This document shows, one piece after another, positions 44,336 to 64,000 of a stretch of 64,000 bases of DNA. The stretch's first letter is position 1. Every line of letters begins with the position of its first letter. Source of the stretch: an uncultured Collinsella sp. (lineage in GTDB: Bacteria; Actinomycetota; Coriobacteriia; Coriobacteriales; Coriobacteriaceae); assembly GCA_905198355.1 (NCBI GenBank), contig CAJKCG010000001.1, forward strand, positions 52,347 to 116,346. Reading direction: 5' to 3'. The notes under the pieces are model-generated. The model worked only from the letters and a program-made list of their open reading frames with translations, searched no databases and was not told the origin of the DNA. Position numbers and translations under genes: made by a program.

Positions 44336-45937
44336 ATGAACCAGATTCTTCTCTTTATCGGCCTCGTCATTATTCTGTGCCTGACCATCAAACCCGTCGG
44401 CAAAAAGCTCCCCTTCCCCACCCTGCTCATCTTTATCGCGCTCGGCATGCTGTTGGGCGTCAACGGCCCGGCACATATCGACTTTAGCGACTATACGCTC
44501 ACCGAAACCGTCTGCAGTACGGCGCTGCTGTTCATCATGTTCTACGGCGGCTTTAACACCAATATCGACCGCGCCAAGCCCGTCGCTGCGCCGGCGGTGC
44601 TGCTGAGCACGCTCGGCGTCGTCATCACCGCAGGCATCACCGGCGTGTTCGCCCACTTCGCGCTGGGGTTCGACTGGATCGGCGGCCTGCTGCTGGGCTC
44701 GGTCGTGGCATCCACCGACGCGGCCAGCGTCTTTAGTGTTCTACGCGAGCACAACCTGTCGCTGAGGGGCGGGACTGACTCGCTGCTCGAGGTCGAATCG
44801 GGCTCCAACGACCCCGTCGCCTACATGCTCACCGCCGTGCTCGCGACCCTTGCGGCCGGCGGCGACATCAACATTCCCGCACTGCTGGCTAAGCAGATTA
44901 TCCTGGGTGTGGGCCTGGGCCTTGCCATCGGCTGGGCGGCGGGCCGCCTGATTGAACGCGCGCACGCAACTGCCGAAGGCGCGCAGACCATCTTTTTGTT
45001 CGCCGTGGCCATCATCGCCTACGCGCTGCCGAGCTACCTGGGCGGCAACGGCTTTTTGGCTGTATACCTGGCCGGCATTGTGCTGGGCGCCAGTGACATC
45101 ACCGGCAAAGTCGAGATGGCGCACTTCTTTGACACCCTCACCGAGATGGCCGAGATGACGATCTTCTTCTTGCTCGGCCTGCTCGTGACGCCCGCGCGCT
45201 TGCCGCAGATGCTGCTGCCGGGCCTGGCGCTCATGGCGTTTATGCTCTTTGCGAGCCGCCCCATCGCCGTCGGCGTGCTCCTGGCGCCCTTTAAGACGAA
45301 CCCCCGCCAGGTCGCGCTCGTAAGCTGGGCGGGCCTGCGCGGAGCAGCTTCGGTCGTCTTTAGTCTCTTTGCCGTGGTGGCCGGCGTTCCCGGCGGACAC
45401 GACCTATTTGACCTGGTGTTCGTGATTGCCGTGTCGAGCATTGTGGTACAGGGCTCGCTGCTGCCGGCGGTGGCGAAGAAGCTCGATATGATCGATGAGA
45501 CCGGCGACGTGCGCCGCACCTTTAACGACTACCGCGACGAGGACGGCATGTCGTTTGTAAAGCTCAAGGTGGGCGCTGGACATCCGTTTGCCGGACGCTC
45601 GCTCGCCGATATTGGCAGCGCGACGGACATGCTCGTGGTCCTGGTGCTGCGCGATGGCGCGCACCCGGTGCTGCCCAACGGCGATACCGTAATCCAGGAA
45701 GGCGATCTGCTGGTGATGGCCGCCCCAACGTTCGAAGAGCGTGCCGAGGTTACGCTGCGCGAAGTCACCGTAACGCCCCACGGTCGTCTGGCAGGCCAGC
45801 GCCTGCGCGACGTGCCGCAGGGCAAGCACCCCTTTATCGTCGTGATGCTCAAGCGCGAAGGCCAGACGATAATCCCCGATGGCAACACCCTCATATACGC
45901 CGGCGACGAAGCCGTCATCGCCACGCTGGCGTCGTAG
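44336..45937 (+). CDS. K+/H+ (CPA1, NhaP2-type) antiporter with C-terminal TrkA-C domains
   Basis: 533 aa; N-terminal 12-13 TM Na_H exchanger domain plus two RCK_C-like domains. Confidence 0.8.
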   Translation: MNQILLFIGLVIILCLTIKPVGKKLPFPTLLIFIALGMLLGVNGPAHIDFSDYTLTETVCSTALLFIMFYGGFNTNIDRAKPVAAPAVLLSTLGVVITAGITGVFAHFALGFDWIGGLLLGSVVASTDAASVFSVLREHNLSLRGGTDSLLEVESGSNDPVAYMLTAVLATLAAGGDINIPALLAKQIILGVGLGLAIGWAAGRLIERAHATAEGAQTIFLFAVAIIAYALPSYLGGNGFLAVYLAGIVLGASDITGKVEMAHFFDTLTEMAEMTIFFLLGLLVTPARLPQMLLPGLALMAFMLFASRPIAVGVLLAPFKTNPRQVALVSWAGLRGAASVVFSLFAVVAGVPGGHDLFDLVFVIAVSSIVVQGSLLPAVAKKLDMIDETGDVRRTFNDYRDEDGMSFVKLKVGAGHPFAGRSLADIGSATDMLVVLVLRDGAHPVLPNGDTVIQEGDLLVMAAPTFEERAEVTLREVTVTPHGRLAGQRLRDVPQGKHPFIVVMLKREGQTIIPDGNTLIYAGDEAVIATLAS

Positions 45938-45979
45938 CGGCCAGGGACAGCCGTCCCGTATTGGCTACATTTGAGCATC

Positions 45980-46158
45980 AATCGCCCCGACAGGGGTCTC
46001 GTTGAGGACAGTTAGTGTCTCCCAAGACTAAGTGAGTAGGCTTTTGTCGAATCGCCGACCACGTCATCAAAGCACAAGTCTGTGACCTGCAGGTTTGTTG
46101 AAGAAAAGACTTCGGGTGCTCAGCATTTCCAAAAAAGCCTACTCACTTAGCCGGCGGG
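45980..46158. repeat. 175-bp MITE-like element, copy 2
   Basis: Same orientation as copy 1. Together they bracket the phosphatase/antiporter pair. Confidence 0.7.
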
Positions 46159-46393
46159 TGGCCATAATAGAACCGCCGCGACGTCGTTGGACTCCGTTGC
46201 GGCGGTTTATCATGCATTTTCGCACAGCCGTGGGCACAAACACCCCGTCGCCCCATATGACAAAGGGGCAGTCCCTTTGTCACATTAAATAGAACTTCAG
46301 CAAGAAGCTGAGGAAAAAGAAGACCGAATGAGCCACCGCTCGCATCGCAACCATGGTATAAATGGATTGCGCTCCTTTATGGAGGGCAGTCAA

Positions 46394-46420
46394 GGGCCGG
46401 GGGATCCCCCCGGCATTTTT
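46394..46420 (+). terminator. terminator-like hairpin unit 1 (GCCGGGGGATCCCCCCGGC followed by ATTTTTG)
   Basis: Seen directly; a similar unit lies ~125 bp downstream. Confidence 0.5.
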
Positions 46421-46519
46421 GTTTTTAGGTCAACAGGAAATCGAGCGAAATGTCTCGTGTAGACCCGACATGCGGTTTCTGTTATAAAGATGTCGGTACC
46501 CTCGAATAGAGGGGCCTCC

Positions 46520-46548
46520 AAGAGCCGGGGTCTTACCTCCGGCATTTT
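46520..46548 (+). terminator. terminator-like hairpin unit 2 (GCCGGGGTCTTACCTCCGGC followed by ATTTTTT)
   Basis: Flanking sequence resembles unit 1 (GAGGGGC..CAAG.GCCGGGG). Confidence 0.5.
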
Positions 46549-46571
46549 TTATGCAATACGAGGCCTGCCCA

Positions 46572-47246
46572 TTAGACGACAGCCTTCTTTCTTATTTCTT
46601 TTAGTAAGCCTTTTTTAAACGCAGTACTACCACCAAAAAACTTCTGGTCAGTATTAGTCTGCTTATTCGCCTGATATTTCAGACTCGTGAACTCAATGGT
46701 ACAGATATAGTCCACAGCCTGAGCCAAATAGTAATCCGATGAAGTTGTTGGCTTATAGATAACTGCATTTTTAGCCAAAGCGTAATCGATTGCCTTGTGA
46801 AGCGCGCTCGAAACCGAACCCTGTCCTCCGTCGTAGTAAATCTTCACAGCATCAAACTGCTGAAACCAACTCAAATTATCGAATATGAAATCGATGATTT
46901 CACGCCGCATCGCATCAGCGATCTGTTTGAGAGTTCGATACCGATGCGTCTTGAATACAAACACCTTGTACGAGATGGGCAAATGTCGAAACATAACTCG
47001 AAATAGTGAAAACAGCCTTTTTCTCTCACTGATGTCCAAGTCCTTGAACTGATCTTTTCCATTCATGAGAGGAGAAGCATGGAACGGAAGGAGCGGCAAT
47101 CCGCTATCGGCTACCGCCCTTTCATATTTCTCTATTCCCTCAGCGATGGGAATATTTTGTTCATGAAAAACAAAGGCCACAAGATAGTATCTTTCACGAA
47201 GATCATCGCTTCCAGATTCATCAATAAAGATACTCAGCTCTCGCAT
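46572..47246 (-). CDS. DUF3800-family protein
   Basis: 224 aa from ATG with AAGGA RBS; N-terminal LSIFIDESGS motif. The gene and its flanks are markedly AT-rich versus the genome. Confidence 0.6.
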   Translation of the reverse strand: MRELSIFIDESGSDDLRERYYLVAFVFHEQNIPIAEGIEKYERAVADSGLPLLPFHASPLMNGKDQFKDLDISERKRLFSLFRVMFRHLPISYKVFVFKTHRYRTLKQIADAMRREIIDFIFDNLSWFQQFDAVKIYYDGGQGSVSSALHKAIDYALAKNAVIYKPTTSSDYYLAQAVDYICTIEFTSLKYQANKQTNTDQKFFGGSTAFKKGLLKEIRKKAVV

Positions 47247-47261
47247 GGGCAATCCTTAATA

Positions 47262-47290
47262 AAAAAGCCGGGGAAAACGTCCCCGGCACT
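47262..47290 (-). terminator. rho-independent terminator closing the BREX operon
   Basis: Minus strand GCCGGGGACGTTTTCCCCGGC followed by TTTTTTATTA. Confidence 0.6.
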
Positions 47291-47401
47291 TGGAAGCCCT
47301 CTCTTAAGAGATGACCACCTAATTTATACCATGAAGTTGGACGTATATTCAAGCATGAGTATAAAATACAAACATATGTTCGTCAATAGCAAAGGTGGCC
47401 A

Positions 47402-47599
47402 TCATTCAGCGTCGTCATCGGCGGCAAAGTCGCGGAGGTCGAGGCCTTCGCGTTCGGCTCGGGCTAGGAGCTCTTGAGGTGACTCGTCCTCGATATCCAT
47501 CACGTCGAGCATAGCGGCCGGAAAACCCACGCCTGCCGCACTCCCCGCGCGGTCGAGCAGGCTCTCGCGCAACTGGTCTACATCAACTTCGATTTTCAT
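47402..47599 (-). CDS. small acidic protein (65 aa), BREX-linked, unknown function
   Basis: GC-rich ORF with BREX-like codon usage, 28 bp downstream of the 450-aa gene. Confidence 0.4.
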   Translation of the reverse strand: MKIEVDVDQLRESLLDRAGSAAGVGFPAAMLDVMDIEDESPQELLARAEREGLDLRDFAADDDAE

Positions 47600-47626
47600 G
47601 GTGAAACCTCCTACCGGGCCAGGGCC

Positions 47627-48979
47627 TTACTCACCAGCACTGAGCTCATCCACGGCAGCAACAAAAGCAGCCACCTGGTTGTCGTCCATCTGCGCGGCCA
47701 GGCGCCCCACGGGCTCGTCGTAGGCAAACTGTACTTTATCGATAAAGCAATCCCAGGCACGCTCATCCACACGCACGGCGGCCTCGCAATACTGGCTGAG
47801 CTTTTTGAGTCCATACCAAAACGCATTCACATGGCGCGCAGGATCCTCATCCAGCACCCCATCGTAGCGCCGACCGTTAAACTCACGCATGCGCGCCACG
47901 GCAACCTCGAGCGAGTCGCCGCCGTCGGCCGAAGCCTCGTCCACAAGCTCGGGAATCGCAACCTCGCGCCGGACATTGTGCCTGGTAGCACCGTCGTACT
48001 CGCCCACCAACACGTCTTCGTCAAACCGATCATCGTAGTCGAAATAACTGCTGCCCCGGCAAATCCCATGCAGCGAACCGGTGCCAAAGGCACGGAACAA
48101 CCCGCCATCGGCAACAACGCACCTATAAGTCTCAAACGACTTCTTAACCTGAGCGAGCAACTCGGAAAGCTCTCCGGCATCGCACCCCGTCTCGCACGCG
48201 ACGCAAGCAGACTTCGGCAACGATACCGGCTCCACCGTGCTCCCTGCAACGCGGGCAGCGCGCTCGGCCCGATACGCTTGGGCTGCCAAGCGCGCTCGCT
48301 GCGCAGCACCGCGCACATTAGTAAGCTCGCGCTCCAGCGCCACATCGCCAGCCACATCGCTCGCAAACGCGTCAGCACCCTGCGGGCCGGTCGCACTCAG
48401 CTCGGACTCAAACGTCGCCGTGATCATGCCGGCAAGGTCCGTTGCGTCGGCGGCACAACGCAGCTGCTCCAACTGCGTGCACAGCAGATCGGCATCCAGG
48501 GGCACCGCATCCACAACGCACACGTCACTCAGACGCACCGCGCCCTGCAGCACCAAAGCCCCCGCAGCATCGTACGCCGCACGAACCCTGTCCGCCGTAT
48601 TGGCACGCAGCTTTACCTCGATAAACGCAAGCGTCTGCTCCAAGCGGGCCAACAGCTCGGCCTTGTCCTCCATACGCAAAAAGGCAGCGTAGCGCCGCTC
48701 CATCTGCAACGGGCCCACAACGCCCATCTGCTTGCGAGCCCGCGCAAGCGACTCGGCTTCAACGCGGCGCACATACCCGTCAACGGCCTGCACGGCAGAC
48801 TCACGCGCAGCACGCTCGGCAGACTCGACGCCCTCGATCACGGCCAGCAGCTCGCGGGAGCGCGCCTTGCGCACCAACTCCCCGCGGTCGTACTGCTCAA
48901 GCGCCGCCTGACGCTTGGCTACCGACTCAAAGCCAAACAGCTCGTCGAGCAGCTCGCCAACAGAACGTTCTTCCGCCAT
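47627..48979 (-). CDS. 450-aa protein of unknown function, immediately downstream of brxL
   Basis: Long GC-rich ORF, co-oriented, 94 bp after brxL. No motif I can assign; CVACETGC and CRGSSYFDYDD segments. Confidence 0.5.
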   Translation of the reverse strand: MAEERSVGELLDELFGFESVAKRQAALEQYDRGELVRKARSRELLAVIEGVESAERAARESAVQAVDGYVRRVEAESLARARKQMGVVGPLQMERRYAAFLRMEDKAELLARLEQTLAFIEVKLRANTADRVRAAYDAAGALVLQGAVRLSDVCVVDAVPLDADLLCTQLEQLRCAADATDLAGMITATFESELSATGPQGADAFASDVAGDVALERELTNVRGAAQRARLAAQAYRAERAARVAGSTVEPVSLPKSACVACETGCDAGELSELLAQVKKSFETYRCVVADGGLFRAFGTGSLHGICRGSSYFDYDDRFDEDVLVGEYDGATRHNVRREVAIPELVDEASADGGDSLEVAVARMREFNGRRYDGVLDEDPARHVNAFWYGLKKLSQYCEAAVRVDERAWDCFIDKVQFAYDEPVGRLAAQMDDNQVAAFVAAVDELSAGE

Positions 48980-49072
48980 GGCAAGGCCTCCTCACGCGCA
49001 GCGCGCCACCATGCTCGCGGGCTCATGTGCGCATCAAACGCCTCGCGCACGCAAGCCCGCACGCTCGCATCC

Positions 49073-51445
49073 CTATAGATCCAACGCCTTCTTCGCGGCA
49101 TCGACCGGGTCGCCATCCATGTAGAACACCGGGCTCAACCCCGAGATAATCTCGGAGGAAACGCTCTGCAGGCCCGCGATGGCGCTCAGCGGCAATATCA
49201 CGCGCTTGGCGCCGGCGTTTTTGGCCACGCGCATGATGTCCTCGAGCCCGCGGATCTCATCCATAGATCCCGACATGCGCAAGATTCCCGGAACCGCCAG
49301 CGCGGACATCACCGGGCGGTTGCACGCCGCGGAGCACAGGCCCACAAACTCGGCAAGCGAGACTTCTTCGGACAGACCCTTGCTCTGCAGGTCGTTATAG
49401 AACAGCAGGTAGTCCTTTGAACCAATGTGCATGCCCGGCGCCACACGGTTCGCCAGGTTCACAAAGTTGTCGAACGCGGCCTCCAGCGTATCGCGCACCG
49501 GCTTGTTAAAGGCAACGCCCTCGTGCTTAAACTTGCACTCGCCGGCGACAGCCTTGTTCTCCAGCTTGTACACGGCAACCTCGCCGCCCTGCGATCTGCC
49601 CACGCCAAACACATGGCCGGACAACAGCGGCCCGTCGGGAATCAGCGTGTCCTCGCTCTGCTCGGGCACGCGCACCACGTGCACGTCCTGCGGGTTGTCG
49701 GCATCCATATAGCCCAGGTTAACGTCGATAAACTCAACGCCCGCCATAATCTTGAGCTGCTCCTTTACGCGGCGACGGCCCTCGATGGCGTAGTCCAGCA
49801 ACCAGCGCACGTCGTCCTTGTCCATGGCCTCGTCGGGGAACAGCAGCTTGGCCAGGCCGCTAAAGGTCTTGCGCACGGCGATCTCGTCACGCTTGTTAAA
49901 GTCGCTGTTAAAGCGGAAATACCGGTCGATATGGTGCGTAAAGTCCTTGCGGCGCATCTCCTTGCAAAACTCCGACAGGCAGTCGGTAATCAGGCCGTAA
50001 TGCCCGGTCAGCAGGCTCGAGCGCATCTTGGGAATCTCCCAGCCCGGCAGGTAGTAATGGATGCGGTCGAAGAAGGCCGAATCGTTGTTAAACTCCGGCG
50101 GAAACGGATCAAACAGGTGCGTGGTCTTAAGGACATTTTGCACGGTGTCGTTGATGTTGCCCTCAAAGACCATGGAGGCATCGGCGTTAATCTGGTCGCG
50201 GCCGCGCGCGTAGCTGCCACTCGCCATGTAGTCCTTCATGATCTGCACGGCGTTGGTGTCCTTAAAGCGCATGCCGGCGACCTCGTCGAACGTCACGCAG
50301 TCCCAGTGGCCCACCAAGCCCACGCGATCGGCGCGCATGGAGTTCATACGGCCGAACAGGTTGGCCGTGGTGGTCTGGCCGCCCGAAAGCAAGATGGCAT
50401 AGGGCGAGACCTCTTTGTAGATATGGCTCTTGCCGGTGCCACGGGGACCCAACTCGCACAGATTGTAATTGCGCTCGATCAGCGGCACCATGCGCTCGAT
50501 AAAGTGCAGGCGCTCCTTCTCCGAAAGCTCGCTGGGCTCATAGCCGGCAGAGCGCAGCAGCATGTTGAGCCACTCGTCGCGCGAGAAATACTGGCGCTCG
50601 TCGATCATGGCCTCCAGGTCCAGGTTGGGCATCTGGATGGGCGTGAGCGACGCCACGCTAAACGGAGAGTCCTCGGGTCCGCGCTTTTTGCGTTTGGCCT
50701 TGGAACGGCGCGGCGCATCGTCGCCAAAGACCTCCATGCCAAACTCGTCTTCCTCTTCCATGGGATGACGATACTCGATGCTCATGATGCACCAAATGCC
50801 GCCCTGCAGAATCTTGGAGTAGTCGCGCACGTACTCGGCCGGCATCACAAACGGCTCAATGGTCAGATTGGCAAACGACGCCACGTAGATGTCTTTGTAT
50901 TCGTCGAGCTTGGCCGTCACCTTATCGATAATGGTAAAGCGACCCAGCTCGCGAATCTTGGACTTGATGCGCTCGGACTCGTCGGGACGCACGTAGTTAT
51001 CGGTGAGGATCTTGCGGATGCGCTCCAGGCCCTCTGCCACGGCATCCTCGTCATCGGTTGAGCAGTACATGCCCAGCAGGTACTCCAGCACAAAGGTGGG
51101 CACGTTGGCGCCACGCTTCATAAGGGCCGTAAGGTCCTTGCGCACGATCTTGCCGCCAAAGTGCTCGAGCAGCTTACCGTCCAGTCCATCCATGTCGTAA
51201 CCGTCATCCTCGGGAGCGTCGGCCACGGCCTGGGCATAGCCATCGGTCGAGGACTCGTCCTCGGCGGGCGCCGCAACCTCATCGGGCGCAGCGGCCGCCA
51301 CCGGCTCCGGAACAGGCGCGGCGGCCACGGCCTCCGGGGCAGGCACAGCCTCCACCGCAGGCACCGCGGCCTCCACCGGCGCACTCACATCAATCGAGGG
51401 AACTTCCCACAGATCGTCGTCATGGCTATCAAACATAGGGCACAC
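49073..51445 (-). CDS. brxL: BREX Lon-like protease BrxL
   Basis: 790 aa; central ATPase GPRGTGKSH Walker A; C-terminal Lon-protease-like domain. Confidence 0.8.
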   Translation of the reverse strand: MCPMFDSHDDDLWEVPSIDVSAPVEAAVPAVEAVPAPEAVAAAPVPEPVAAAAPDEVAAPAEDESSTDGYAQAVADAPEDDGYDMDGLDGKLLEHFGGKIVRKDLTALMKRGANVPTFVLEYLLGMYCSTDDEDAVAEGLERIRKILTDNYVRPDESERIKSKIRELGRFTIIDKVTAKLDEYKDIYVASFANLTIEPFVMPAEYVRDYSKILQGGIWCIMSIEYRHPMEEEDEFGMEVFGDDAPRRSKAKRKKRGPEDSPFSVASLTPIQMPNLDLEAMIDERQYFSRDEWLNMLLRSAGYEPSELSEKERLHFIERMVPLIERNYNLCELGPRGTGKSHIYKEVSPYAILLSGGQTTTANLFGRMNSMRADRVGLVGHWDCVTFDEVAGMRFKDTNAVQIMKDYMASGSYARGRDQINADASMVFEGNINDTVQNVLKTTHLFDPFPPEFNNDSAFFDRIHYYLPGWEIPKMRSSLLTGHYGLITDCLSEFCKEMRRKDFTHHIDRYFRFNSDFNKRDEIAVRKTFSGLAKLLFPDEAMDKDDVRWLLDYAIEGRRRVKEQLKIMAGVEFIDVNLGYMDADNPQDVHVVRVPEQSEDTLIPDGPLLSGHVFGVGRSQGGEVAVYKLENKAVAGECKFKHEGVAFNKPVRDTLEAAFDNFVNLANRVAPGMHIGSKDYLLFYNDLQSKGLSEEVSLAEFVGLCSAACNRPVMSALAVPGILRMSGSMDEIRGLEDIMRVAKNAGAKRVILPLSAIAGLQSVSSEIISGLSPVFYMDGDPVDAAKKALDL

Positions 51446-51447
51446 TC

Positions 51448-54156
51448 CTAAAAACCAAAGTCAGCAACAGGGGCAAACGAAACAGCGATGGTGTACGTCT
51501 CGCGCCAAACGATCTTGCCCGTCTCGCGCTCGCGGCAGACCAGATAGTACGGACCCTTGGCCGAGAATCCATCCGCTGCATGCAACGCAAACTTGGCATG
51601 CACCACGCGCTCCTGCGAGTTAACAGAAGTCTTGCTGGCATGCGCCTTGACCGTATCGCTCACCTCGTTGCCACTTGCATCGGTAAACACCAGCTCGTAC
51701 TCGCACGGCAAGACCTTACCTTGGGCAGGCTCTTCCTGGATCAAGTTGACCGAGAAGAGCGAGTTGGTCACTCGGCGTCCCTCGCTTAGCACGCGCAGCG
51801 TCGCCGCGCGCGTGTCGACAAAGTCCTTGGAACCCGAGCGCGCACGCCAAAAACCGATAACGGGCACGCAGAGCTCCTGCAGGCTCATGCCGCCGTGGAC
51901 GTAGTTGTTAGTGCCGCCGGGACGCTTGAAGTGCACGTTCTCGCGCGGGGCAAACCCCTCAAAACCGGCGCCCAAACGTCCCATGTTAACATTAACAAAC
52001 ACCCCGCATGCCTCTTCCGAAAGCTTGGCCACGGCCTCGTTGGGTACCACCAGATGACGCTTGCCGTGCATGACAGGAGCGTCAAGGAAGGGAAGGTCTG
52101 GCTTGCCGAGCATCTGGCACTCGCTGAGCTCCCGACGCGTGTAGATAAAGCCGTGGTCCGCCGTTATAACAACACGGGCGCCCGGGGCGTCGGTGCACAC
52201 GCGACGCGCCAACGCAGCAAGTTCCTCCACGGTGTCCGCACAGGCATCGAAGACGTCATCCTGCGTAGCGGCCTTCTCGCCCGTAGCATCGATCTTGTTG
52301 TGGTAGAGATAAACGAGCTTGGAGTCCTTGAGCAGCGCCTTGCGCTCGGTTCCCGCCATGTTGAGGTATGCGCTCGAGCGCAAAGCGCGGCCCGTAGACT
52401 CAACGTTGGCAAGCACGGCCTCGCGCTGCGGAGTCGTCGAAGTGGGCATGCCGTCAGCCAGCACGTACGTGCCATCCGCTGCAAGCCCAAGCGCCTGGTG
52501 CGGCAGCAGCGCGGGCATACCCACCTCGGTAATGGAGGGAAAGACCGCCTGCATGCTAGAGACCTTGACGTTGCCGCCGCGCTCGCGCTCGAGCAGCGCC
52601 GCAACGTCGCGGGCCACCTCATAGCGCAGCGCGTCGCTCACGATAACGACCGTCGTTTTGGTAGAGCCCACAAAGGTGGGCAGTACATGCCAGTAGAATT
52701 CATCCTGCCGTGCGGGACCCTCGATGTAGCCGCAATCGGCCCACTCCCCTTGCGCAGCGGTCGCCCAGCATGCATTAGCATCGGCCAAGAACCAGTTACT
52801 GTAAAGATTCTCCGCCCAGTCCACCACAGCTCGGGCAGGCTCCTCGAGCACATCGCACTCGACGGAACGCGCCCGCAGATACGCGGTGCACACATGGCGA
52901 TAGGCAGCGTCCATGGCATACCAATCGGACGTGTAGGCATCCCACACCTGCTGGGGCTGCGCCAGATGGAACCCGCCCGCATGCGCCTGCCTAAACGCAC
53001 ACATATCGGCCACAGCGACAAGCAGGTCAAAGTAGCTCTTGACACGGCGGTACCAGCTCAGGTCGCAGCGACGCGACGCAAAAGTGCGCGCGTCCTCAAC
53101 ACGGTCCGCACCCTGAGCAAACGAGCTGAACAGCTGCGAGAGCACGGCCTCATTGACGCACGGGAACACATCAAGCGAGGCTAGCACATCGATCGGCAGA
53201 GCCTCAAACCGCGCAAAGAGCCCGCGAGCATCCTCCACCAAACGGCAGATCTCAAATAAATCCTCGCTCGACGCCTGAGCATCAGCAGTCTGGTCCCACG
53301 TACGCACTGCCTCAAGGCAATAGGGTCCGTAGGCGGGAGCCACATAGCTTTCGAGTCCCTTGAGCGCTCCCTCGGGAAGCGCGGTGGATGACGCCGTGAT
53401 GAGCATATGGGATGCCAGCGCAAGCAGCGAATCACGCTCATACAGCGGCCCCTCAAACCCATAGCAACGTACAATGAAGGCAGAGAGGACATCGCGCACG
53501 CAGTACTTGTCCACCAACTCGGCCAGCGCTTCGGGGCCCTCGTGCAGCAGCGTGGTCATACAGCCGCGCAGCACAAACGCGGGGCGCGCGTCGCCAAGCT
53601 CTTTACCGCCAAAAATCACCGTAAGGGTGCCGAGTTCGATATCGGATGCGCCCGAGGCATGCGGAACACACGCGGCAAACTTAGCGCAACGGGTCTTGGC
53701 ATCAAAGAACGTCTTGTGCTCGCGCAGGCTCTCGCGCACGGCGTCGATATTCTCGATGCCCAGCTGATCGGCCAAAAGCGAAAGATAGTCAGCCTGGAAC
53801 TGATCTGCATACAGCTCAACATCGGCAAGCCAATCACCCTCAAGCCTGCCGCGCGGGCAACGGCGATACAGCAAGATATCGCTCGCAAGGTCATCGCGGT
53901 TGATGAGCTTCTTAACGGCAAACATGTGGCCCTCGCAGGCCTCAACAAAGCGCACTGGGCGCTCAAAGTCACCGTGAGCGGGCATAACGCCGTCATCGGC
54001 CCCCGCGCCGTCGAAACCCTCGGCAGCCAATCGCTCAAACTCAGGAGCAAACTCGCCGTCCGCATCGTGCCAAATCACCACACGGCGCAGCATACATGCG
54101 GGCAACGGCTGCAAAAAACGCAGCTTGAGCTGTTCTTCTACATCGATCTTGGGCAT
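51448..54156 (-). CDS. pglZ: BREX alkaline-phosphatase-superfamily protein PglZ
   Basis: 902 aa; TVVIVSDALRYE PglZ-domain signature. Confidence 0.8.
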   Translation of the reverse strand: MPKIDVEEQLKLRFLQPLPACMLRRVVIWHDADGEFAPEFERLAAEGFDGAGADDGVMPAHGDFERPVRFVEACEGHMFAVKKLINRDDLASDILLYRRCPRGRLEGDWLADVELYADQFQADYLSLLADQLGIENIDAVRESLREHKTFFDAKTRCAKFAACVPHASGASDIELGTLTVIFGGKELGDARPAFVLRGCMTTLLHEGPEALAELVDKYCVRDVLSAFIVRCYGFEGPLYERDSLLALASHMLITASSTALPEGALKGLESYVAPAYGPYCLEAVRTWDQTADAQASSEDLFEICRLVEDARGLFARFEALPIDVLASLDVFPCVNEAVLSQLFSSFAQGADRVEDARTFASRRCDLSWYRRVKSYFDLLVAVADMCAFRQAHAGGFHLAQPQQVWDAYTSDWYAMDAAYRHVCTAYLRARSVECDVLEEPARAVVDWAENLYSNWFLADANACWATAAQGEWADCGYIEGPARQDEFYWHVLPTFVGSTKTTVVIVSDALRYEVARDVAALLERERGGNVKVSSMQAVFPSITEVGMPALLPHQALGLAADGTYVLADGMPTSTTPQREAVLANVESTGRALRSSAYLNMAGTERKALLKDSKLVYLYHNKIDATGEKAATQDDVFDACADTVEELAALARRVCTDAPGARVVITADHGFIYTRRELSECQMLGKPDLPFLDAPVMHGKRHLVVPNEAVAKLSEEACGVFVNVNMGRLGAGFEGFAPRENVHFKRPGGTNNYVHGGMSLQELCVPVIGFWRARSGSKDFVDTRAATLRVLSEGRRVTNSLFSVNLIQEEPAQGKVLPCEYELVFTDASGNEVSDTVKAHASKTSVNSQERVVHAKFALHAADGFSAKGPYYLVCRERETGKIVWRETYTIAVSFAPVADFGF

Positions 54157-54179
54157 GAATATCCTTACCGTATTTGCAG

Positions 54180-55148
54180 TTACTTAATCTTTGCCAGCAC
54201 ATCCTGAAACTTGGCGTAGTTGACCTTGACGCCGTCATCCAGGTCGATCTTGATCATCTGGTCTGCCAAGTGGTGAAGTTTCTCTTCATAGACAATGGTC
54301 TCTTTGAGCTGGTCGTTGAGCTTTTTGACGCGCTTATCCAAACGCACGCGCTCGCCGCGCTCGGCACTGGCAAGGGCATCGTTGGCATAGCCGATCTGGG
54401 CACGGTAGCGCTCCTGCTGCTCATGCACATAGTCGGTGCGGATGCGAGCCAACAGGTCGGGCTGATAGCGATGCATGTAAACAAGGCACTTGAAGCCATT
54501 CTTCTTGCCACTGTCGAACAGCCAGTAGATGGGGCGCTTCTTATAGGTCTGACAGTGGTCCTTAAAGAAATCCTTTAGGAAATAGGCACGAATCACCTCG
54601 CGCGAGGTACCCTTGCCGCCGAGCGCCTCGGCACTAAAGGCCAGGTTCTGCTCGAGCGTCTCCTCGCCATACACAGTGCGCACAAAGTCGATAAAGTAAC
54701 GCACGATGTCGTCATCAAAGTACTCGTCGTCGGTAATCGGCAGCACGTTGTCGCTATCGGGCATAAAGGCCACATGCGCCGGGTCGGGCATCTTGGCCAG
54801 ATAGTCGTTGACCGTGGCACCCTGATCGGCCAAGACCAGACCGTCCACGTCCAGCGAATAGCGGCCAAACATGCAGCCCACGGCATAGCTTATGAGCGAG
54901 GTGATCTCGTCGCGCTTAGTGCGCACGTATTTGTTGCCCTTATAGCTCTCGGGAATCTCGTCGGCGGTGTCGAAGATGCGCGCCACCGAGACGTACTTAT
55001 CCTCGACCTCGATGGGCACCTCCCCCTCCATGTTGTAGATCTTGGCAAAGATTCGGTTGAGCTCCTCCTCGTTAGCGCGAAGCTGCTCAAAGCGAGCATT
55101 AACCTCGGCCTTGCGGGCCTCGTATTTATCTTGAAGCAAAGTGGCCAT
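54180..55148 (-). CDS. pglX: PglX C-terminal fragment (last ~320 aa of the BREX methyltransferase)
   Basis: ...RPIYWLFDSGKKNGFKCLVYMHRYQPD... C-terminal PglX signature. Only 6 sense codons lie upstream before a stop. Own RBS GAAAGG. Confidence 0.65.
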   Translation of the reverse strand: MATLLQDKYEARKAEVNARFEQLRANEEELNRIFAKIYNMEGEVPIEVEDKYVSVARIFDTADEIPESYKGNKYVRTKRDEITSLISYAVGCMFGRYSLDVDGLVLADQGATVNDYLAKMPDPAHVAFMPDSDNVLPITDDEYFDDDIVRYFIDFVRTVYGEETLEQNLAFSAEALGGKGTSREVIRAYFLKDFFKDHCQTYKKRPIYWLFDSGKKNGFKCLVYMHRYQPDLLARIRTDYVHEQQERYRAQIGYANDALASAERGERVRLDKRVKKLNDQLKETIVYEEKLHHLADQMIKIDLDDGVKVNYAKFQDVLAKIK

Positions 55149-55324
55149 AACTACAGACCTTTCAATTTATCAATACAGTAGAAGTTAGAAAACCCGAGCC
55201 CATTCCATCAATCAATTAACACCAAGACTCGTGAGCTGAAAAACAGCGAAAGCCTTCCGATGCTCGACCGATATCTTCAGGACAAGTCTGGCTATCAATA
55301 AATCCCATAAGTGAGAGACGACAA

Positions 55325-55915
55325 CTACAATAAAGTCAATAAAAGATGGGACAGAAAAACGAATGCCATGATTAACGACAGAACAGTCAGGCCAGTTGAT
55401 ATTTTCAATCGCTTCCACATGTTGTTATGTTTCAAAAGGTAAGCCCGATAGGTAATGTTTAGGGAAGAGCAGTAGGACTTAAGCAAGTCCCGTTCCCTAA
55501 TTTGCCCGCCCTCGTCGCAAGCCTCTTTGTAAGTAGTCGAATACCTATCAAATTGTTCAGAAGGAGATGCGAGTGCAATATTGCTCCTTAAAAATATTGC
55601 ACTGACAGCTATAACAAGAGCACAGCCAAGAAGACCAAGAAGAATCAAATAGACAAACAGTATTTGCCTCGTTGAAATCCCATAAACTTCCTCAAGACCT
55701 TGAATATTTGAAATATAGTCGAGAGGTGCCAGGTACGCAACGGACAGAATCGTGATGGTAACCATAAGGTTATCAACGTAGCGATTTAAGCTATCCCCCC
55801 TCTCTTTTTCAAATTCAAGTGAGGAAAGAACAATGTCTCTCAAGTAATCGCTAATCTGCCCCTCCTTGGAGAGAGCGCTTTTATCGACGTCATGTCGCTT
55901 GTTCTTTTTGCCCAT
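55325..55915 (-). CDS. 3-TM membrane protein encoded in the AT-rich insertion within pglX (candidate abortive-infection-type effector)
   Basis: 196 aa from ATG with AAAGGTGA RBS; TM helices at ~55-70, ~95-118 and the C-terminus; region ~37% GC. Confidence 0.5.
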   Translation of the reverse strand: MGKKNKRHDVDKSALSKEGQISDYLRDIVLSSLEFEKERGDSLNRYVDNLMVTITILSVAYLAPLDYISNIQGLEEVYGISTRQILFVYLILLGLLGCALVIAVSAIFLRSNIALASPSEQFDRYSTTYKEACDEGGQIRERDLLKSYCSSLNITYRAYLLKHNNMWKRLKISTGLTVLSLIMAFVFLSHLLLTLL

Positions 55916-55926
55916 GAAAGTCACCT

Positions 55927-56076
55927 TTACTACTTGGTTTTTCGATCAGGTAAACCCGCCGGTTTTTCATAAGTAAATTGCGTTAACCTTGTTATGGGTC
56001 CAGGAATCGTGACCGGCTTCTTTGCTCCCGCCCCTTCATCTTTTCTTTTCTTGTCATCTTTCTTTTTTTCAGACAT
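55927..56076 (-). CDS. Lys-rich 49-aa peptide (manual call, low confidence)
   Basis: MSEKKKDDKKRKDEGAGAKKPVTIPGP...; first ORF after the PglX N-fragment stop, inside the AT-rich insertion; weak RBS. Confidence 0.25.
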
Positions 56077-56144
56077 ATTTAATTTCAATCCAATCTATCC
56101 AATGACGTTCTTTTGTTAAAGATAGGTGAGTCCTAACAAGACAG

Positions 56145-58661
56145 CTAAATTAAAGGATGACGCTTGAAATCCCAAGAAGTTTCAAACGAGTCATAGTCAG
56201 CCTTTGAAATTGAGCGAGAGTCTTCAACGAGTGAACAAACAGTCGGTTCGGCGGCCTTATCTTGGATGATCGGTAACTGACCGATTTGGCCTACCTCAAA
56301 GTTTAGAGTCGGCGACATAAACGCCAAATCAATTTCGGCAATGGAACAGTTGCAGAAAGCCTGGATGTATCGAAGCTCGTTCGGCTCCGCAAAAAGACAT
56401 GCTCCAGCTACCTCAAAAAGCATCCCTCGAGGTGCAAACCTAAAGGAGGCGAGGCTGGAAGAAATTTTAGACCAGGAAACTGCGGGCTTGAAATAGTCGT
56501 TCTGGTTCTTGATCACAAAATCAGGTGTAGAGAGATAGGCATACTTGGACAGAATTGCCTCCTTCATCTCCCGACCGTCATCAAACCAATTAACCACCTC
56601 ATCGTAGTCACCCCACCACTTTCGATAGGAGCCGCCCCGAATAATCGGAAACCAACGGGAACCACTTTGCTTTGCCTCGGGCCTGCCACTGCAATCTCGC
56701 GATGTGTTGGAAGGCACCACTTCCCACCATTTCCTCAAAAAGCGGCCATTATCGCTCGTCGCCAAGCCCTGTCGCGGAGTAGCAATGGCATCGAGCCTCT
56801 TTCCTTTTGTGAACGATTCAACAAGAGCATCGCTGGCCCAGTAGGCTATGGGGCTGCCGGGGATCTGCTTGAAGGTCTCGGCGTCGCGGCGATAGAACCA
56901 GCCGCAGTCGGGGTTTCGGATCGCCTCGAGGGCCTTGGGAGCCTGGACAGCGGCGCCAACGAAGTCAGAAAGGCGCACGTAGCCTCCCTTGTAGCCCTTG
57001 ATGAGTGAGTTGTGAAACGTGTAGGTGCAGATGGGCACAGTCGCGCCAGCGAAGCCCGAGTACTCAAGTTGAATGAGGGAGGTAAGCGTTCTGTTGTCGA
57101 TAATCTCGTTGCGGAGCTTCTCATAGCTTCCGATGAACATCCAGACGAAAGGCGACATGACTCCGCACTCGCCGTGGTCCTTGGCGAGACTGAACATGCG
57201 AACGACAAAGCTGGAGAAGAGGTCGCTCTTCACGTCGGGGTAGTTCTTCTTGACCCACTTGCTCATAAAGGGGTTAAAGCTGCTGCTGCCCATATACGGA
57301 GGATTCGCCACGACGCAGGTAAAACGACGGGACAGTTTCTCGCAGATGGCGGCAGCGCATTCGAGCTTAGTTTTAGTCGCAGAAGCAAAAAGATCGTCGG
57401 AACAGCTCACGGCGGCGGCCTTAAGCTCGTCAATCTCGTCCTCTGAAGGATTAAGAAGCGAGCCGATCTCGCCCAAATGACTCAGCTCCTCGGCGAGCTT
57501 CTTGTTACCCGGCAGCTCGTCCTCCCCAAGCGGGATGCTCGAGAGCACGGTAACGTCGGCGCGAACGCCACGCCTAAAGAAGCGACGGTCGTGCTCGCGG
57601 GCGCACATGGCAAGCGCCAGCTCCGCGATCTGTGCCGCGCGGGAATCGATTTCCATACCTGCAAGGTTTTTAGTAAGAATGAGCTCGGGAATCTCGCGCT
57701 CACGATAGCCGCGCTCCTCGTACATATGAAAGAGCAGCTCAAACGCATAGACCAAGATATGGCCCGAGCCGCATACGGGGTCGCAGAGGGTTATCTCCTC
57801 GGGGCTCGAGATGCGGATGAAGTCCTCGTGCTCAGCATCGGGCTCGATGTAGTATTTCATGCGCTCGCGTAGCGAACTCCCCGGATTGTTGAGCATCCAC
57901 AGACGGCCGAGCGAGTTCTCGACCATATAGCGCACGATCCACTCGGGGGTGAAGAGCTGAGTGGCGGGAGCGATGTCCGCCGCTGCGGCCTTGCGCTTGG
58001 ACTTGAAGAACTCGTCTTTAACGTCAGCGTTGTAGTACTGATACATCCAGCCCAGAACGGTCACGCCCTCGCGCCAGTCCTCGTCAGTGAGGACAACATT
58101 GAGTTTGCCCACCACGCCGTCGGCCATCATGAGGCCCTGGGGCAACAGCAACTCCATGGCTCCGCCTACGCGATCAAAGACGCCTGGCAGGCAATCGGCA
58201 AGCTCCTCGCACTGAGCAACAAACAGGTAGCGCCACAACGGTTCATCCAAGCCCGCCATTTTGAGCTCGGCTATGCGATCGGTATCGGCCGTCGTTATCT
58301 CCACATCCAGTGCGTTCTCCACGGCCTCGCTGCCATGGCTGCCGTCCGCACGACTTAGCATGCGCATACGGCTGGGAAGCCATCCGCGTGCATCCATGAA
58401 GCGAATGGCCACGATGCGGTTGAACCAGGTGTAGGCCGCACGGTCGCGCAGCGCCTCGTGACCCACCTCTGCCTGCATGCGCAGTAGTTCGTCGCGTTGC
58501 TCAATCTCAGCCGGACTTAGGGGCAGGCCGTTGACGGTCTCGGAGCCAACGGGCGCGGGTGCAGGTTCGGTGATGCCGTAGCGCACCATCTGCGCCTCCA
58601 CGCCTTTGATGAGCTCCGTACGGGCCCAGGTGCAGAAACTCTTAAGAGCAGAATCGTTCAT
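56145..58661 (-). CDS. pglX: PglX N-terminal fragment (N6-adenine methyltransferase domain)
   Basis: 838 aa; VVANPPY catalytic motif and DPVCGSGH SAM-binding motif; ends ...ETSWDFKRHPLI followed by a stop. Confidence 0.8.
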   Translation of the reverse strand: MNDSALKSFCTWARTELIKGVEAQMVRYGITEPAPAPVGSETVNGLPLSPAEIEQRDELLRMQAEVGHEALRDRAAYTWFNRIVAIRFMDARGWLPSRMRMLSRADGSHGSEAVENALDVEITTADTDRIAELKMAGLDEPLWRYLFVAQCEELADCLPGVFDRVGGAMELLLPQGLMMADGVVGKLNVVLTDEDWREGVTVLGWMYQYYNADVKDEFFKSKRKAAAADIAPATQLFTPEWIVRYMVENSLGRLWMLNNPGSSLRERMKYYIEPDAEHEDFIRISSPEEITLCDPVCGSGHILVYAFELLFHMYEERGYREREIPELILTKNLAGMEIDSRAAQIAELALAMCAREHDRRFFRRGVRADVTVLSSIPLGEDELPGNKKLAEELSHLGEIGSLLNPSEDEIDELKAAAVSCSDDLFASATKTKLECAAAICEKLSRRFTCVVANPPYMGSSSFNPFMSKWVKKNYPDVKSDLFSSFVVRMFSLAKDHGECGVMSPFVWMFIGSYEKLRNEIIDNRTLTSLIQLEYSGFAGATVPICTYTFHNSLIKGYKGGYVRLSDFVGAAVQAPKALEAIRNPDCGWFYRRDAETFKQIPGSPIAYWASDALVESFTKGKRLDAIATPRQGLATSDNGRFLRKWWEVVPSNTSRDCSGRPEAKQSGSRWFPIIRGGSYRKWWGDYDEVVNWFDDGREMKEAILSKYAYLSTPDFVIKNQNDYFKPAVSWSKISSSLASFRFAPRGMLFEVAGACLFAEPNELRYIQAFCNCSIAEIDLAFMSPTLNFEVGQIGQLPIIQDKAAEPTVCSLVEDSRSISKADYDSFETSWDFKRHPLI

Positions 58662-58727
58662 GGTTGATGAGCCTTTCTAAACGCCATAAACCACCGGTGC
58701 GCGCTTTGGCACCGATGGCTCCGCGGG

Positions 58728-61700
58728 TTAGTTGATACGGATCTCGTCGTTTGCAGCGAGCGCCTGCATAAGGCGAGAGCGCAGGTCGTCCACGTAGTGC
58801 TCCACGTCCTCTGCGGACAAGAGACGACTCGGCTTGGCCAGATCGGCGCGGCGCACGGTCTTAATCTTGCGCTGGGGCACGGGTGTAGGCGTGGGCGCGG
58901 ACGCAGACAACGCGGCTCCCTTGCTGGAGACCTTCTTGACCACCTCACCCGTACTCGTGACCTCGGTGGTGCGGTGCTCGTTGTCCATACGCGCGCGAGC
59001 CTCATCCACAGCGTCGTACATCTCATTGGCTGCCACACTGAGCCAGTCGCCCCAGTTAGTTGCAACAACGCTCAGTTCGTTGAGACTTTGAGCGCTGTGG
59101 GCACGGTTTTTGAACGACTCGTATTTGGTGCCGGCGCCTGCTATGGCATCCTTGGCCTGATTGACAAAGCCCTTTTGGCTCTCGGCCTGCGCCCGCAGGT
59201 CTTGCAGATCGCTCTCGATGCGACACAAAAACTCATTGCGGCGGATGCCCAACAGCTTTTTCATGTCGTCCTCGACGGGATCCATAAGCGGCTGCAGGTC
59301 TTTAATATGGCCGTAGGGCTTGGGATCTTTGAGGATCTCGCGCACCTTTGCCACGTTCTTCACCGCGTCGGGAATGTCATCGGAGGCATACTCGATACCC
59401 TCGGTGCGGCTCAAGAAATCCTTGGCGTGGTCAAACGCTGTTCGTTGGTTGGACCCGAAGAACTCAACCACCCTGTCAAAGTCTTCCTTGGCATCGAGCA
59501 GGCGGTCCTCATGCTTGGTAAACGTAGTCAAGAACGCCTCGGCCTCGTTCTGGTCCTTAAGGACGTCGGCCACCTCCGAGCGCATCTTCTCGCACTCGCC
59601 CTCACCGGGATACGGGTAGGCCGGCTTGATGCCCGTGTAGTAGTCGCGTGCCATGGCGACGCACACCTCACGCAAGTCCTCAAGGCGCTCCTTGAGCTCG
59701 GCCACGAGCTTATCCTCGTTGGAGGGCACGGTCTTGAGATCAAACAGGTCGCGCATGAGCTCACCCGCACCGCTCAGCAAACGGTCGTTCATGCGCACGC
59801 GCAAGCGCACCTGGGCCTTATCGGCATCCTTGCGCAGGAGTGCTACCATGCGGCTGTCGTTAGCTTGAACCGTCTGACCGCCAAACAGCACCTGCGCGCG
59901 CTGCTCCACCACAAGCTGCGCCACCACATTTGCGATATCGACCTCGCGCCAGCCAAAGGGCCTTTGCTGGTACTGGCGCTGGATATCGCCCATAGCGGTA
60001 TCCAGGTGGCGCTGGTGCTGAACTTTGAGGTAGTCCTCGACCTCCTTGAGCGCACGCGTGTTGCCCGCGTCCATGCCAGCGAGCCCCGCCTGGACGTTGC
60101 CCGCCAGAGTGGAGCGGATATCGGAATCGCTCGTGACCGGCGCGCCGATATAGTCGGCCTTTTCAAAGACTACATCGCACAGCTGCGCCAGCACCTGCTC
60201 AAAGACCTGGGCGGGCTTGGTCGCGCGGACCTCAACCATGCGGCCGTTGACTGCACAACGTGCATGGAGCACGGCCTCGCTCAAAAGGGTATCGGCCTCC
60301 TTCTCGTTATAGGCCGCCTCGCGCATCTTGGACTCGACGATCTGGCGCGTACTCAGCTGAAGCTCCTGGAGATTTCGCGTCTTGGCGTACTTGCGGATCT
60401 TGGCGGCCCTGACGAGCGTCTCCCAATAATCCGCCTCGTCACTCAAGGCCACGATGGCTTTGCCCGAAGAAGCCAAAGCCAGCTCGGTATCGTCCGCACG
60501 GCCCAGGTCGCTCGCCATAGTCGCCACGTAAAGCTCCATGCCGCCCATGCTGGTACCGTGGATTGAGCCGTCCACATAGCGGTCAAACGGGAAGTCGTTG
60601 GCCCCGCGATTGAGCTTGCGCGCGGTGTAGATGCTGTCGAACAGGCGCTTTTTGATAGACTCGATCACCTGCGCGTTGTCGATCGGGGTGCGTGCGATCT
60701 CCTGCGCTATCTCCTGCTCCTCGTCGGTGAGGAAGCTATAGGTATCGCCCTGGCGTGCCACGTAGTTCTCGCGCTCCAAACGGGCGAGGGATTCCTTGAC
60801 GCGGTCCTTGAGGGCGCGCTTGTCCACGTCGAGGCTATCGATCATGAGGATGGAGATGTTCTCGACCGTGGCCTTGACGTAGCCGATGTAGCGGATCAAG
60901 TACAGGAGCTTAAGCACCCGGACATCGTAGCTCTCAAGACCCTCTGCGTTTTCAGCCGCGCGCTCCGCACAGACGACGACTTGAATGATGCCGTGCTCCA
61001 AATCCTTGGAGATTGTGTCGAAGAAGCGCCAGAACGGCACGAGTGCACCAGTCTGGTCATGCTGGATGGCCTGAGCGCTCTCCTGAAACGCGCTCAGCAT
61101 GGAGCGCTCGCCCGTGGACATGTGCTTGGCCTTAACACCATGCTTGCGTACCTCGGTCATCACGTCGGGCAGAAGCTTAAACTGGTAGCCCACAAACGGG
61201 TAGCTGGCCACAAAATCCTTGGAGTTGGCGAAGCCGGCAAGGTCGGAGCGCGAGCCCCCCTCAAAGGTAAAGTTGTTTTTGAGGACGGCGGCGTCTTGCT
61301 CGTAGACCTGTGCAAGCGTATCGGCCGCCGGCGCGGTCTTCTCGAGCACACGGCGTTGGATGACCTCGTCCACGCTGGAGCTGGAGAGCGAAAGGCGGGT
61401 ATTGAAACGGCCCTGGATCTTTGAAAAGTCGTTGCCCACGGGCAGGCTCAGGTTGTCGATGGCCTCCTGGCTCGTGACCATCACCCACACGCGGCCACCG
61501 CAGGCGGCACCCAGCTCCTCGACGATGGTCTGAAGGCTCAGCATAAGGCTTGGGTCCTGGTCGTTTGTAATAAACTGACCCACCTCGTCGACCATAAAGA
61601 GCAAACGGAAGTTGCCACCGTGGGCCGCTGCCTGAGCGTCCACGTAATCCTTGACCTTTTTGGCAAAGACATCGGGGGCCAAAACCTCGTCCTCAGAACC

Positions 61701-62396: not shown

Positions 62397-62474
62397 GGGT
62401 GCTCCTTTGGGTTTGGGAACGTTATGGCAAAGGGTTGTTACCGGCGGCAGGGACTTGCCTGCGGGGAGCCGTGC

Positions 62475-63167
62475 TTACGAGATATCGATGGCGCGGTAGT
62501 AGTTGTCGGCCGGCAGACGGTTAAAGAGCTGGAAAGAAGAGCCGTTGAAACTGCCCGGATAGGCGGCGACCACAGGCACCTCATCAAAATCCGCAAGCAT
62601 GCAATGGAGAAGCGTGTGCATGCGAAAGAATGGGAAGACCTCGCCCGCGCCGGTGAGGAGAACGACGTCTCCAGGCGCGTACGGCTTGGTCTGCTCAAGG
62701 ATGTACGCGGCGACTTTCTCGGGCGAGGCGAACTTGGCCACGTCCTCGAGCACGCGCTGGGTACCGCGGCGCTCCTCTTGGTGCGGGATAGCCTTGAGGA
62801 CACGGCGCTTTTCGAGAATTGCCAGCACGGCGTCGTAGAGGTTCACGACCTTGAGCGTGCACGGAAGCTTGTCGGCCTCGGCATCGCGTGAAAGGGTGTC
62901 AAATAATGCACGCGCCTCAAACTCCAGCGCGGGGTCATAGCAAAAGGTGTGGAAGCCGATCTCATTGCCTATGCCCTTGTTAGCCAAAAAGTCCTCGCTG
63001 CACAGGCATTCGCGCAGAAGCTGCGCGCGGCGCTCAAATTCCTGACAGGCGTGCTGAGAGCGGACATGCGCCGCCACGACGCTCTTACGGGAATGGATGC
63101 CGATATTGGTGGTGAAATCGGTCGCCGGGGTGATAGCAGGTTCGGCGGCGCTGTTGACGGGAGCCAC
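62475..63167 (-). CDS. brxB: BrxB (DUF1788-like)
   Basis: 230 aa; position and size in the operon; stop/start coupling with brxA. Confidence 0.55.
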   Translation of the reverse strand: MAPVNSAAEPAITPATDFTTNIGIHSRKSVVAAHVRSQHACQEFERRAQLLRECLCSEDFLANKGIGNEIGFHTFCYDPALEFEARALFDTLSRDAEADKLPCTLKVVNLYDAVLAILEKRRVLKAIPHQEERRGTQRVLEDVAKFASPEKVAAYILEQTKPYAPGDVVLLTGAGEVFPFFRMHTLLHCMLADFDEVPVVAAYPGSFNGSSFQLFNRLPADNYYRAIDIS

Positions 63168-63168
63168 G

Positions 63169-63786: not shown

Positions 63787-63818
63787 CTCATGCGGGAGGA
63801 ATTGCTCGCGGGTGAGCA

Positions 63819-63828
63819 CCCCCCCCCC
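63819..63828. repeat. homopolymeric C10 (G10 on the brxA coding strand)
   Basis: Seen directly, at the 5' boundary of the brxA ORF. Confidence 0.9.
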
Positions 63829-64000
63829 GAACGCTTTTTGTGGTTATATCCACAGTACACGCTCCAAGGGTGTCAAAGGCTGTCACAAGTGCGCCGCAAC
63901 CCGGCAGGCAGGTGCGGCGCACATGACAATAATCATACCTGTTGGTAAAAAAGTTACCACGCCCAGAGTGTCAAATGTTGAGCAACAAAATTAAATCCGG

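Follow-up and report, generated by a model that had tools for sequence, protein, structure and literature searches.

The canonical type 1 bacteriophage exclusion (BREX) operon ends at brxL, the gene for an MCM-like, ATP-dependent DNA-binding motor that is required for restriction. Of the BREX components, BrxL is one of those whose role is least understood, and how these systems stop phage DNA replication is still unresolved. In a 2026 survey of BREX, BrxL is seen as the helicase-like arm of the type 1 systems (PMC12839542). The present analysis concerns the brxL end of such an operon in a chromosome segment of 64,000 nucleotides (nt) from Collinsella (Coriobacteriia), hereafter the window, whose nearest annotated record is C. 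aerofaciens NZ_OY725717. The operon is a complete type 1 BREX with strong family-model scores. Its brxL gene (49073-51445, minus strand; 790 amino acids (aa)) was assigned by the Pfam domains BrxL_N and BrxL_ATPase and by the PADLOC model BrxL at E = 2.9e-267, and it is followed on the same strand by two open reading frames (ORFs) with ATG start codons that encode a 450-aa protein (p450; 47627-48979) and a 65-aa protein (p65; 47402-47599).

An earlier sequence-only reading of this DNA had drawn attention to these two co-oriented ORFs, rich in guanine and cytosine (GC), downstream of brxL and to the acidity of the shorter product. Both observations were confirmed: the GC content is 63% for p450 and 61% for p65, GC and GC3 (GC at third codon positions) resemble those of the BREX genes, and the isoelectric point (pI) of p65 is 4.05. 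The same reading suggested, as one of two possibilities, that the two genes are an accessory or regulatory BREX component; this is supported for p450 by its linkage to brxL and not for p65, as the latter is also found without BREX. p450 is probably an undescribed, lineage-restricted accessory protein of type 1 BREX that functions with BrxL, a reading that is based on gene linkage and predicted structure, as are all functional statements made below.

Genomic linkage of p450 to brxL

For the close Collinsella relatives, all assemblies display the gene order pglZ-brxL-p450-p65 at this end of the operon, and the p450 and p65 ORFs are conserved in hundreds of assemblies. A wider genome scan, with one genome per species and a p450 pattern derived from a 13-sequence subset, returned 25 loci, nearly all from Coriobacteriia (Eggerthellaceae, Coriobacteriaceae, Atopobiaceae and Collinsella) together with a few contigs of metagenome-assembled genomes binned elsewhere. 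brxL lies upstream of p450 on the same strand in 23 of these species-level loci and is directly adjacent in 22, with a gap of about 2 to 300 nt that is often shorter than 20 nt. The same order was identified in further loci (L007, L034-L040 except L036, which carries p65 without p450, L123 and L124), and the distant homologues P0124 (44% identical) and P0210 (20% identical) likewise come after brxL. Samples chosen by other criteria gave a similar picture. Among 80 metagenome contigs that were anchored on a neighbouring antiporter gene and chosen without regard to p450, brxL was present in 21 and p450 adjoined it in all 21, and a p450 homologue followed brxL in every BREX locus that was reached via p65. 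The sequence-only reading would have been contradicted by homologues residing mostly in non-defence contexts; instead, the intact p450 homologues examined at loci with sufficient sequence were all downstream of brxL, and no intact p450 away from brxL was identified among the loci examined.

The association persists where the operon has been rearranged or lost. In two loci (L017 and L021) brxL and p450 form a unit of their own that is divergent from brxA-B-C-pglX. In the remaining two of the 25 species-level loci (L023 and L024) a 180-aa C-terminal remnant of p450 has been joined to codons 1-54 of the pglX C-terminal part, the trace of a deletion that took pglZ and brxL, and p450 thus decays with BREX. 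The BREX-less alleles at the chromosomal hotspot described below contain neither p450 nor BREX remnants. Within the sample, p450 is inherited, rearranged and lost with brxL.

The brxL-p450 spacer (48980-49072, minus strand) comprises 93 nt with a GAGGAGG ribosome-binding site ahead of the p450 ATG, and the p450-p65 spacer (47600-47626, minus strand) comprises 27 nt with a GGAGG site ahead of the p65 ATG; the tight spacing described earlier was correct, its exact values of 94 and 28 bp were not. Neither spacer contains a terminator-like or promoter-like site, and the first strong hairpin with a U run 3' of brxL is located at 47287-47259 (minus strand), after both p450 and p65. Given the spacing and the lack of an intervening terminator, brxL and p450 are most probably co-transcribed. 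An RNA element in the spacers or the 3' region was also considered and was rejected, as an Rfam search of these regions returned no match at E <= 1.

Several observations weigh against a role of p450 with BrxL. The adjacency is not absolute, as brxL and p450 are separated by an inserted 807-aa gene in one locus (L018). The family is absent from well-studied BREX systems, so BrxL has no general need for p450. Furthermore, the sample comes almost entirely from one bacterial class, and shared ancestry inflates the independent counts given above. In a collection of 72,556 plasmid records, p450 was found in one (from Collinsella) and BrxL in 333, and p450 is therefore confined to certain lineages rather than a general part of BREX.

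The p450 family and its predicted structure

The p450 family is small: among 1.84 billion representative proteins, searched exhaustively with HMMER, only 113 representatives were found, about 50 of which are full length (420-485 aa), at 20-44% identity. Pfam, NCBIfam, PADLOC and PHROGs gave no match for p450 (E <= 1) or for p65, the RefSeq name of p450 is 'hypothetical protein', and 45 family members scanned one by one have no Pfam family in common. The p450 family is new to every library searched, and the protein of the window is the first of its members to be described.

The N-terminal and middle parts of the protein are variable, and conservation is concentrated in two blocks comprising residues 256-300 and 343-405. 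The first block contains a DNGLFAAF-like motif near residues 289-298, and the second contains the motif IP..VEED.GGD...ERMR.FN...Y.G.LDDDF..HVDAFWYGFKKLM at residues 343-395. Four residues (G293, F387, W388 and Q435) are invariant in the family alignment, the near-invariant positions are mostly glycine, aromatic or aliphatic, and a catalytic pattern is not apparent among them. The sequence-only reading had likewise seen no recognisable catalytic motifs in the 450-aa product.

The AlphaFold2 model of p450, computed with the family alignment as input, has a predicted local distance difference test score (pLDDT) of 87.8 and a predicted template modelling score (pTM) of 0.78. The predicted fold is almost wholly helical, including one helix of 69 residues, with a small beta element. 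The profile and Foldseek comparisons that had been proposed for the 450-aa protein were carried out and remained without a match in the family libraries, PDB and BFVD: the model had no counterpart in PDB or BFVD at E <= 0.001, and the family profile had none among PDB sequences. When the family was compared by hhalign with BrxC, PglX (N-terminal part), PglZ and BrxL of the window, no relation was detected, so p450 is no split-off domain of one of the core BREX proteins.

p450 is a soluble protein. It is acidic (pI 4.7, net charge -25), as is the family throughout (-18 to -38), although its charge density (-5.6 per 100 residues) is only roughly double the density in the neighbouring proteins. 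The family has no conserved hydrophobic or transmembrane-like segment, with a maximal Kyte-Doolittle 19-residue mean below 1.6 at positions that are not conserved. An alpha-pore-forming toxin of the ClyA family (ClyA, AhlB/C, SmhA/B) was considered on account of weak ClyA-like Foldseek matches and was rejected, since these matches are not significant (E >= 0.5, template modelling score <= 0.13) and a conserved hydrophobic membrane-inserting segment is lacking.

Among Collinsella strains, the ratio of nonsynonymous to synonymous substitution rates (dN/dS) is 0.15 for p450, while BrxL and PglZ have values of 0.07 and 0.14, respectively; dS is approximately 0.37-0.40 in the p450 and p65 comparisons. 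The value for p450 indicates a functional gene under purifying selection. Divergence between the two neighbours is uneven, as BrxL proteins are 86-87% identical where the p450 proteins are only 43-44% identical. p450 occurs in lengths of 450, 454 and 458 aa, according to how many copies it has of a 12-nt 'GDVA' repeat, which is located at about 48340-48370 of the window (residues ~205-215) in a low-confidence loop of the model.

p65 and the exchangeable cassettes

p65 belongs to a larger Coriobacteriia family of approximately 60-residue proteins (1688 clusters) with the consensus IDVDxLRDYLLDYCGTAMFSGFPAAxLDVxDIExxSGxELCxxAExLGVDLRRF. It is predicted by AlphaFold2 to form 3-4 short helices (pLDDT 74), has a net charge of -13, and evolves under purifying selection (dN/dS 0.09 among Collinsella strains). 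A sub-threshold match to ZCCHC24_C, observed in only 15 of 43 members, was judged to be noise.

The two genes are often found together. p65 directly follows p450 in Collinsella, in several distant genera and at loci with a p450 of only 20-44% identity (L007, L015, L018, L025, L026 and L037-L040), including the one with the most divergent p450 (L040), and their stop and start codons sometimes overlap. In five more loci p65 is located 2-7 kb downstream of p450 on the same strand, past inserted genes such as those for HEC-07/NsnC-like ATPases. Inserts between p450 and p65 in some genomes, at 11360-13330 of L011, 8720-10768 of L022 and 3906-7947 of L034, encode candidate defence ATPases similar to HEC-07/NsnC (SMC/ABC-like) and proteins of 174-554 aa without a family match.

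The proposal of a single pair added to the operon was nevertheless not borne out, as each occurs without the other. p65 is absent from the 5-10 kb downstream of p450 in at least six species-level genomes (L008, L010, L017, L020, L021 and L032), and it is present without BREX or p450 in 13 Collinsella contigs and in other genera. In an Olsenella locus (L033) it follows housekeeping genes, in L036 it follows a helicase of the Schlafen group 3 type, and in L122 it lies near PIN and UvrD-like genes, all without BREX or p450. At the same chromosomal site as in L122, and again without BREX or p450, L125 contains two p65 copies within a type III restriction/HEPN-like island, where they bracket a 293-aa gene. 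Judged by this distribution, p65 is not BREX-specific and forms a conserved 3' terminal module of several alternative Coriobacteriia defence cassettes. In the strain studied here, it is positioned for read-through from the p450/BREX operon.

The genomic setting in Collinsella is a defence hotspot between serC and a K+/H+ antiporter gene (approximately 44336-64000 of the window; L041-L121), for which at least three alleles were distinguished: (i) BREX with p450 and p65, with or without a DUF3800 cassette, (ii) a GIY-YIG/Schlafen-group-3-type helicase that is divergent from p65 and in some cases accompanied by a MazG-like gene, in the absence of BREX and p450 (the 13 contigs mentioned above), and (iii) an empty site where the antiporter gene adjoins serC. 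When the first and second alleles are aligned, homology begins some 25 nt ahead of the p65 start codon, which places the cassette junction inside the p450-p65 spacer, and stops near the p65 stop codon; the p65 C-terminal tails and the 3' flanks vary between strains. Homology bounded by p65 in this way was noted for the window (47402-47626) and L046, L057, L062, L071, L080 and L115. The p65 coding sequence, of which L125 has two copies, may serve as a recombination anchor for cassette exchange, and the locus illustrates clearly how a natural defence hotspot can hold exchangeable cassettes that have one small terminal gene in common.

The variation 3' of p65 also bears on where the operon ends. 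The hairpin at 47287-47259 is formed by GCCGGGGA-CGUUU-UCCCCGGC followed by a U run (dG -17.8 kcal/mol, z = -2.6) and lies inside the variable DUF3800 cassette. This terminator and the sequence 3' of the p65 stop codon are common only to strains with the same DUF3800 cassette, so the BREX operon has no constant end at this terminator. The earlier statement that a strong terminator comes only after both ORFs is accurate for this strain, with none in the gaps, and does not extend to a fixed operon end. The DUF3800 gene (46572-47252, minus strand; low GC, 42%) is placed outside the BREX/p450 unit, between p65 and the antiporter gene, and elsewhere its cassette is absent, inverted or swapped for an allele of 44-45% identity. 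The DUF3800 start codon is directly preceded by a promoter-like site at 47386-47358 and by the terminator hairpin.

Possible role of p450 and comparison with described BREX systems

If p450 functions with BrxL, it would partner the BrxL ring without enzymatic activity of its own. As an adaptor, loader, gate or regulator, it could determine the time or place at which BrxL engages DNA or other BREX proteins. The conserved C-terminal blocks would provide a constant contact, and the fast-evolving helical parts might face something variable, as is suggested by the much lower identity of p450 than of BrxL between the same strains. From linkage and the structural model, we infer that p450 may interact physically with BrxL and may take part in restriction. 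Any one of these specific biochemical roles is considered much less certain than the statement that p450 works with BrxL. A broader scheme is put forward tentatively, as possible rather than probable: Coriobacteriia might possess a seven-component BREX in which p450 is required with BrxL as a loader, gate or infection sensor, and p65 would be a generic terminal module and recombination anchor for swapping BREX, Schlafen-type helicase and type III restriction-like cassettes at island hotspots.

Other explanations of the two genes were weighed against an accessory role of p450. It is conceivable, albeit rather unlikely, that p450 provides an independent single-gene defence or abortive-infection function that piggy-backs in the BREX island. 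The serC-antiporter interval is indeed a hotspot with alternative cassettes, unrelated genes (HEC-07/NsnC-like ATPases and a leucine-rich-repeat-like protein) are inserted around p450 elsewhere, and lineage-specific cargo beside BREX is common (PMC12839542). An independent module would however be expected away from brxL too, where none was found among the loci examined; p450 stays with brxL when the pair is split from the rest of BREX and decays along with BREX, and searches of p450 for an effector-type domain, a nuclease fold or a membrane segment found none. In an unlikely alternative of a different kind, p450 would not be a positive component but would restrain BREX as a negative regulator or safety catch; an acidic protein of the DNA-mimic type might, for example, keep the DNA-binding pore of BrxL blocked until the cell is infected. 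The negative charge that is kept across the family, the lack of a catalytic motif, the faster evolution of the variable p450 parts than of BrxL and the precedent of BREX regulators such as BrxR (PMC9122589) are compatible with this idea, but the modest excess of charge density over the neighbouring proteins and the lack of likeness to known DNA mimics in PDB fold searches are not in its favour. The safety catch is moreover a sub-case of a protein working with BrxL, and is computationally inseparable from that reading.

The distribution of p65 bears on a further alternative, namely that an obligate module of the two genes p450 and p65, for example a toxin with its antitoxin or a sensor with its effector, has been added to BREX. 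Their immediate succession in Collinsella and beside p450 proteins of only 20-44% identity, as well as the five loci with p65 2-7 kb further on, would agree with such a module; nonetheless, the occurrence of either gene without the other and the homology break between them in the hotspot haplotypes largely refute it, and an obligate pair is considered improbable. That both ORFs are chance frames or decaying pseudogenes can be practically dismissed: GC-rich DNA does yield many long spurious ORFs, of which the ORF list of the window contains many, yet the two dN/dS values, the Shine-Dalgarno sequences ahead of both genes, the full-length homologues down to 20% identity with invariant motifs and the confident AlphaFold2 model refute this explanation. 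A phage-derived anti-defence protein was also rejected. No relatives of p450 were detected in IMG/VR by pattern or tblastn searches or in 50,697 phage records by tblastn, and there was no BFVD fold match; the earlier suggestion of an undescribed anti-defence pair accordingly finds no support in the phage and viral collections. An accessory protein acting with BrxL remains the preferred reading of p450.

The remainder of the operon, entirely on the minus strand, is that of a type 1 BREX. Upstream of brxL are pglZ (51448-54156; Pfam and PADLOC PglZ), the C-terminal part of pglX (54180-55148) and its N-terminal part (56145-58661), both recognised by NCBIfam BREX_1_MTaseX, followed by brxC (58728-62396), brxB (62475-63167) and brxA (63169-63819), which correspond to RefSeq brxC, DUF1788 and DUF1819, respectively, in a near-identical C. 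aerofaciens locus. The division of pglX into two ORFs with a variable insert is a difference from other type 1 systems. In the window, an 838-aa N-terminal part (profile positions 1-899 of 1210) and a 322-aa C-terminal part (906-1209) are separated by a low-GC ORF of 199 aa (orf199; 55325-55924, minus strand), and pglX is split by other inserts in further Coriobacteriia (L015, L025, L027, L079, L084, L101 and L103). Between Collinsella strains, identity falls to 46-51% in the pglX N-terminal part beside 92-98% in its C-terminal part, pglZ and brxL, which suggests modular swapping of the methyltransferase/specificity part. BrxL itself is extended at its N-terminus by about 85 residues of acidic, low-complexity sequence rich in Ala and Pro (residues 1-85; 51191-51445); the alignments of the E. 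coli and Acinetobacter BrxL proteins, which lack this extension, start at residue 79-88, and other Coriobacteriia BrxL proteins have similarly acidic N-termini.

Compared with type 1 BREX in general, the locus has all six core genes co-oriented, with p450 at the brxL end in what appears to be the same operon; the canonical operon stops at brxL, whereas here and across Coriobacteriia a seventh conserved gene comes next. As a linked extra gene restricted to certain lineages, p450 resembles the named BREX accessories (the WYL regulator BrxR, BrxU/GmrSD, BrxD, BrxE, BrxF, BrxHI/HII, BrxP and PglW), yet it has no match to them in PADLOC (E <= 1), Pfam or NCBIfam, and domain searches detected no helix-turn-helix/WYL, ATPase, helicase, kinase or nuclease domain in it. 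Its position after brxL is fixed, whereas BrxR is located upstream of brxA and the others are variable. The auxiliary nucleases of BREX (HNH, PD-(D/E)XK, HKD, OLD/TOPRIM, HEPN, PIN and Schlafen; PMC12839542) likewise recur in or next to the core locus; in contrast to these, p450 is all-helical and acidic, without a nuclease or ATPase fold or motif. The comparison with DNA mimics (Ocr-like) was confined to bulk charge, -25 for p450 and -13 for p65, and none was among the fold matches. A parallel in organisation is the BrxD-BrxHI dyad of type 2 BREX, in which a motor also has a dedicated, tightly linked partner gene, and the BrxD-type partner has been proposed to assist helicase loading or activation (PMC12839542). 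BrxD is an ATPase, whereas p450 lacks an NTPase motif, and the parallel is one of analogy without homology.

The text of the 2026 survey mentions neither Coriobacteriia nor Collinsella nor a p450-like protein (PMC12839542), and literature searches on BREX in Collinsella, Eggerthella or Coriobacteriia, or on new BrxL partners, found nothing relevant. As far as gene content indicates, this is a BREX with an additional, undescribed, lineage-specific component whose family was not found in the literature searched. A dedicated and conserved partner gene without a fold match would offer a new handle on what BrxL couples to, and the BREX of abundant human-gut Actinobacteria (Collinsella, Eggerthellaceae and Atopobiaceae) differs in this respect from the E. 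coli and Acinetobacter models.

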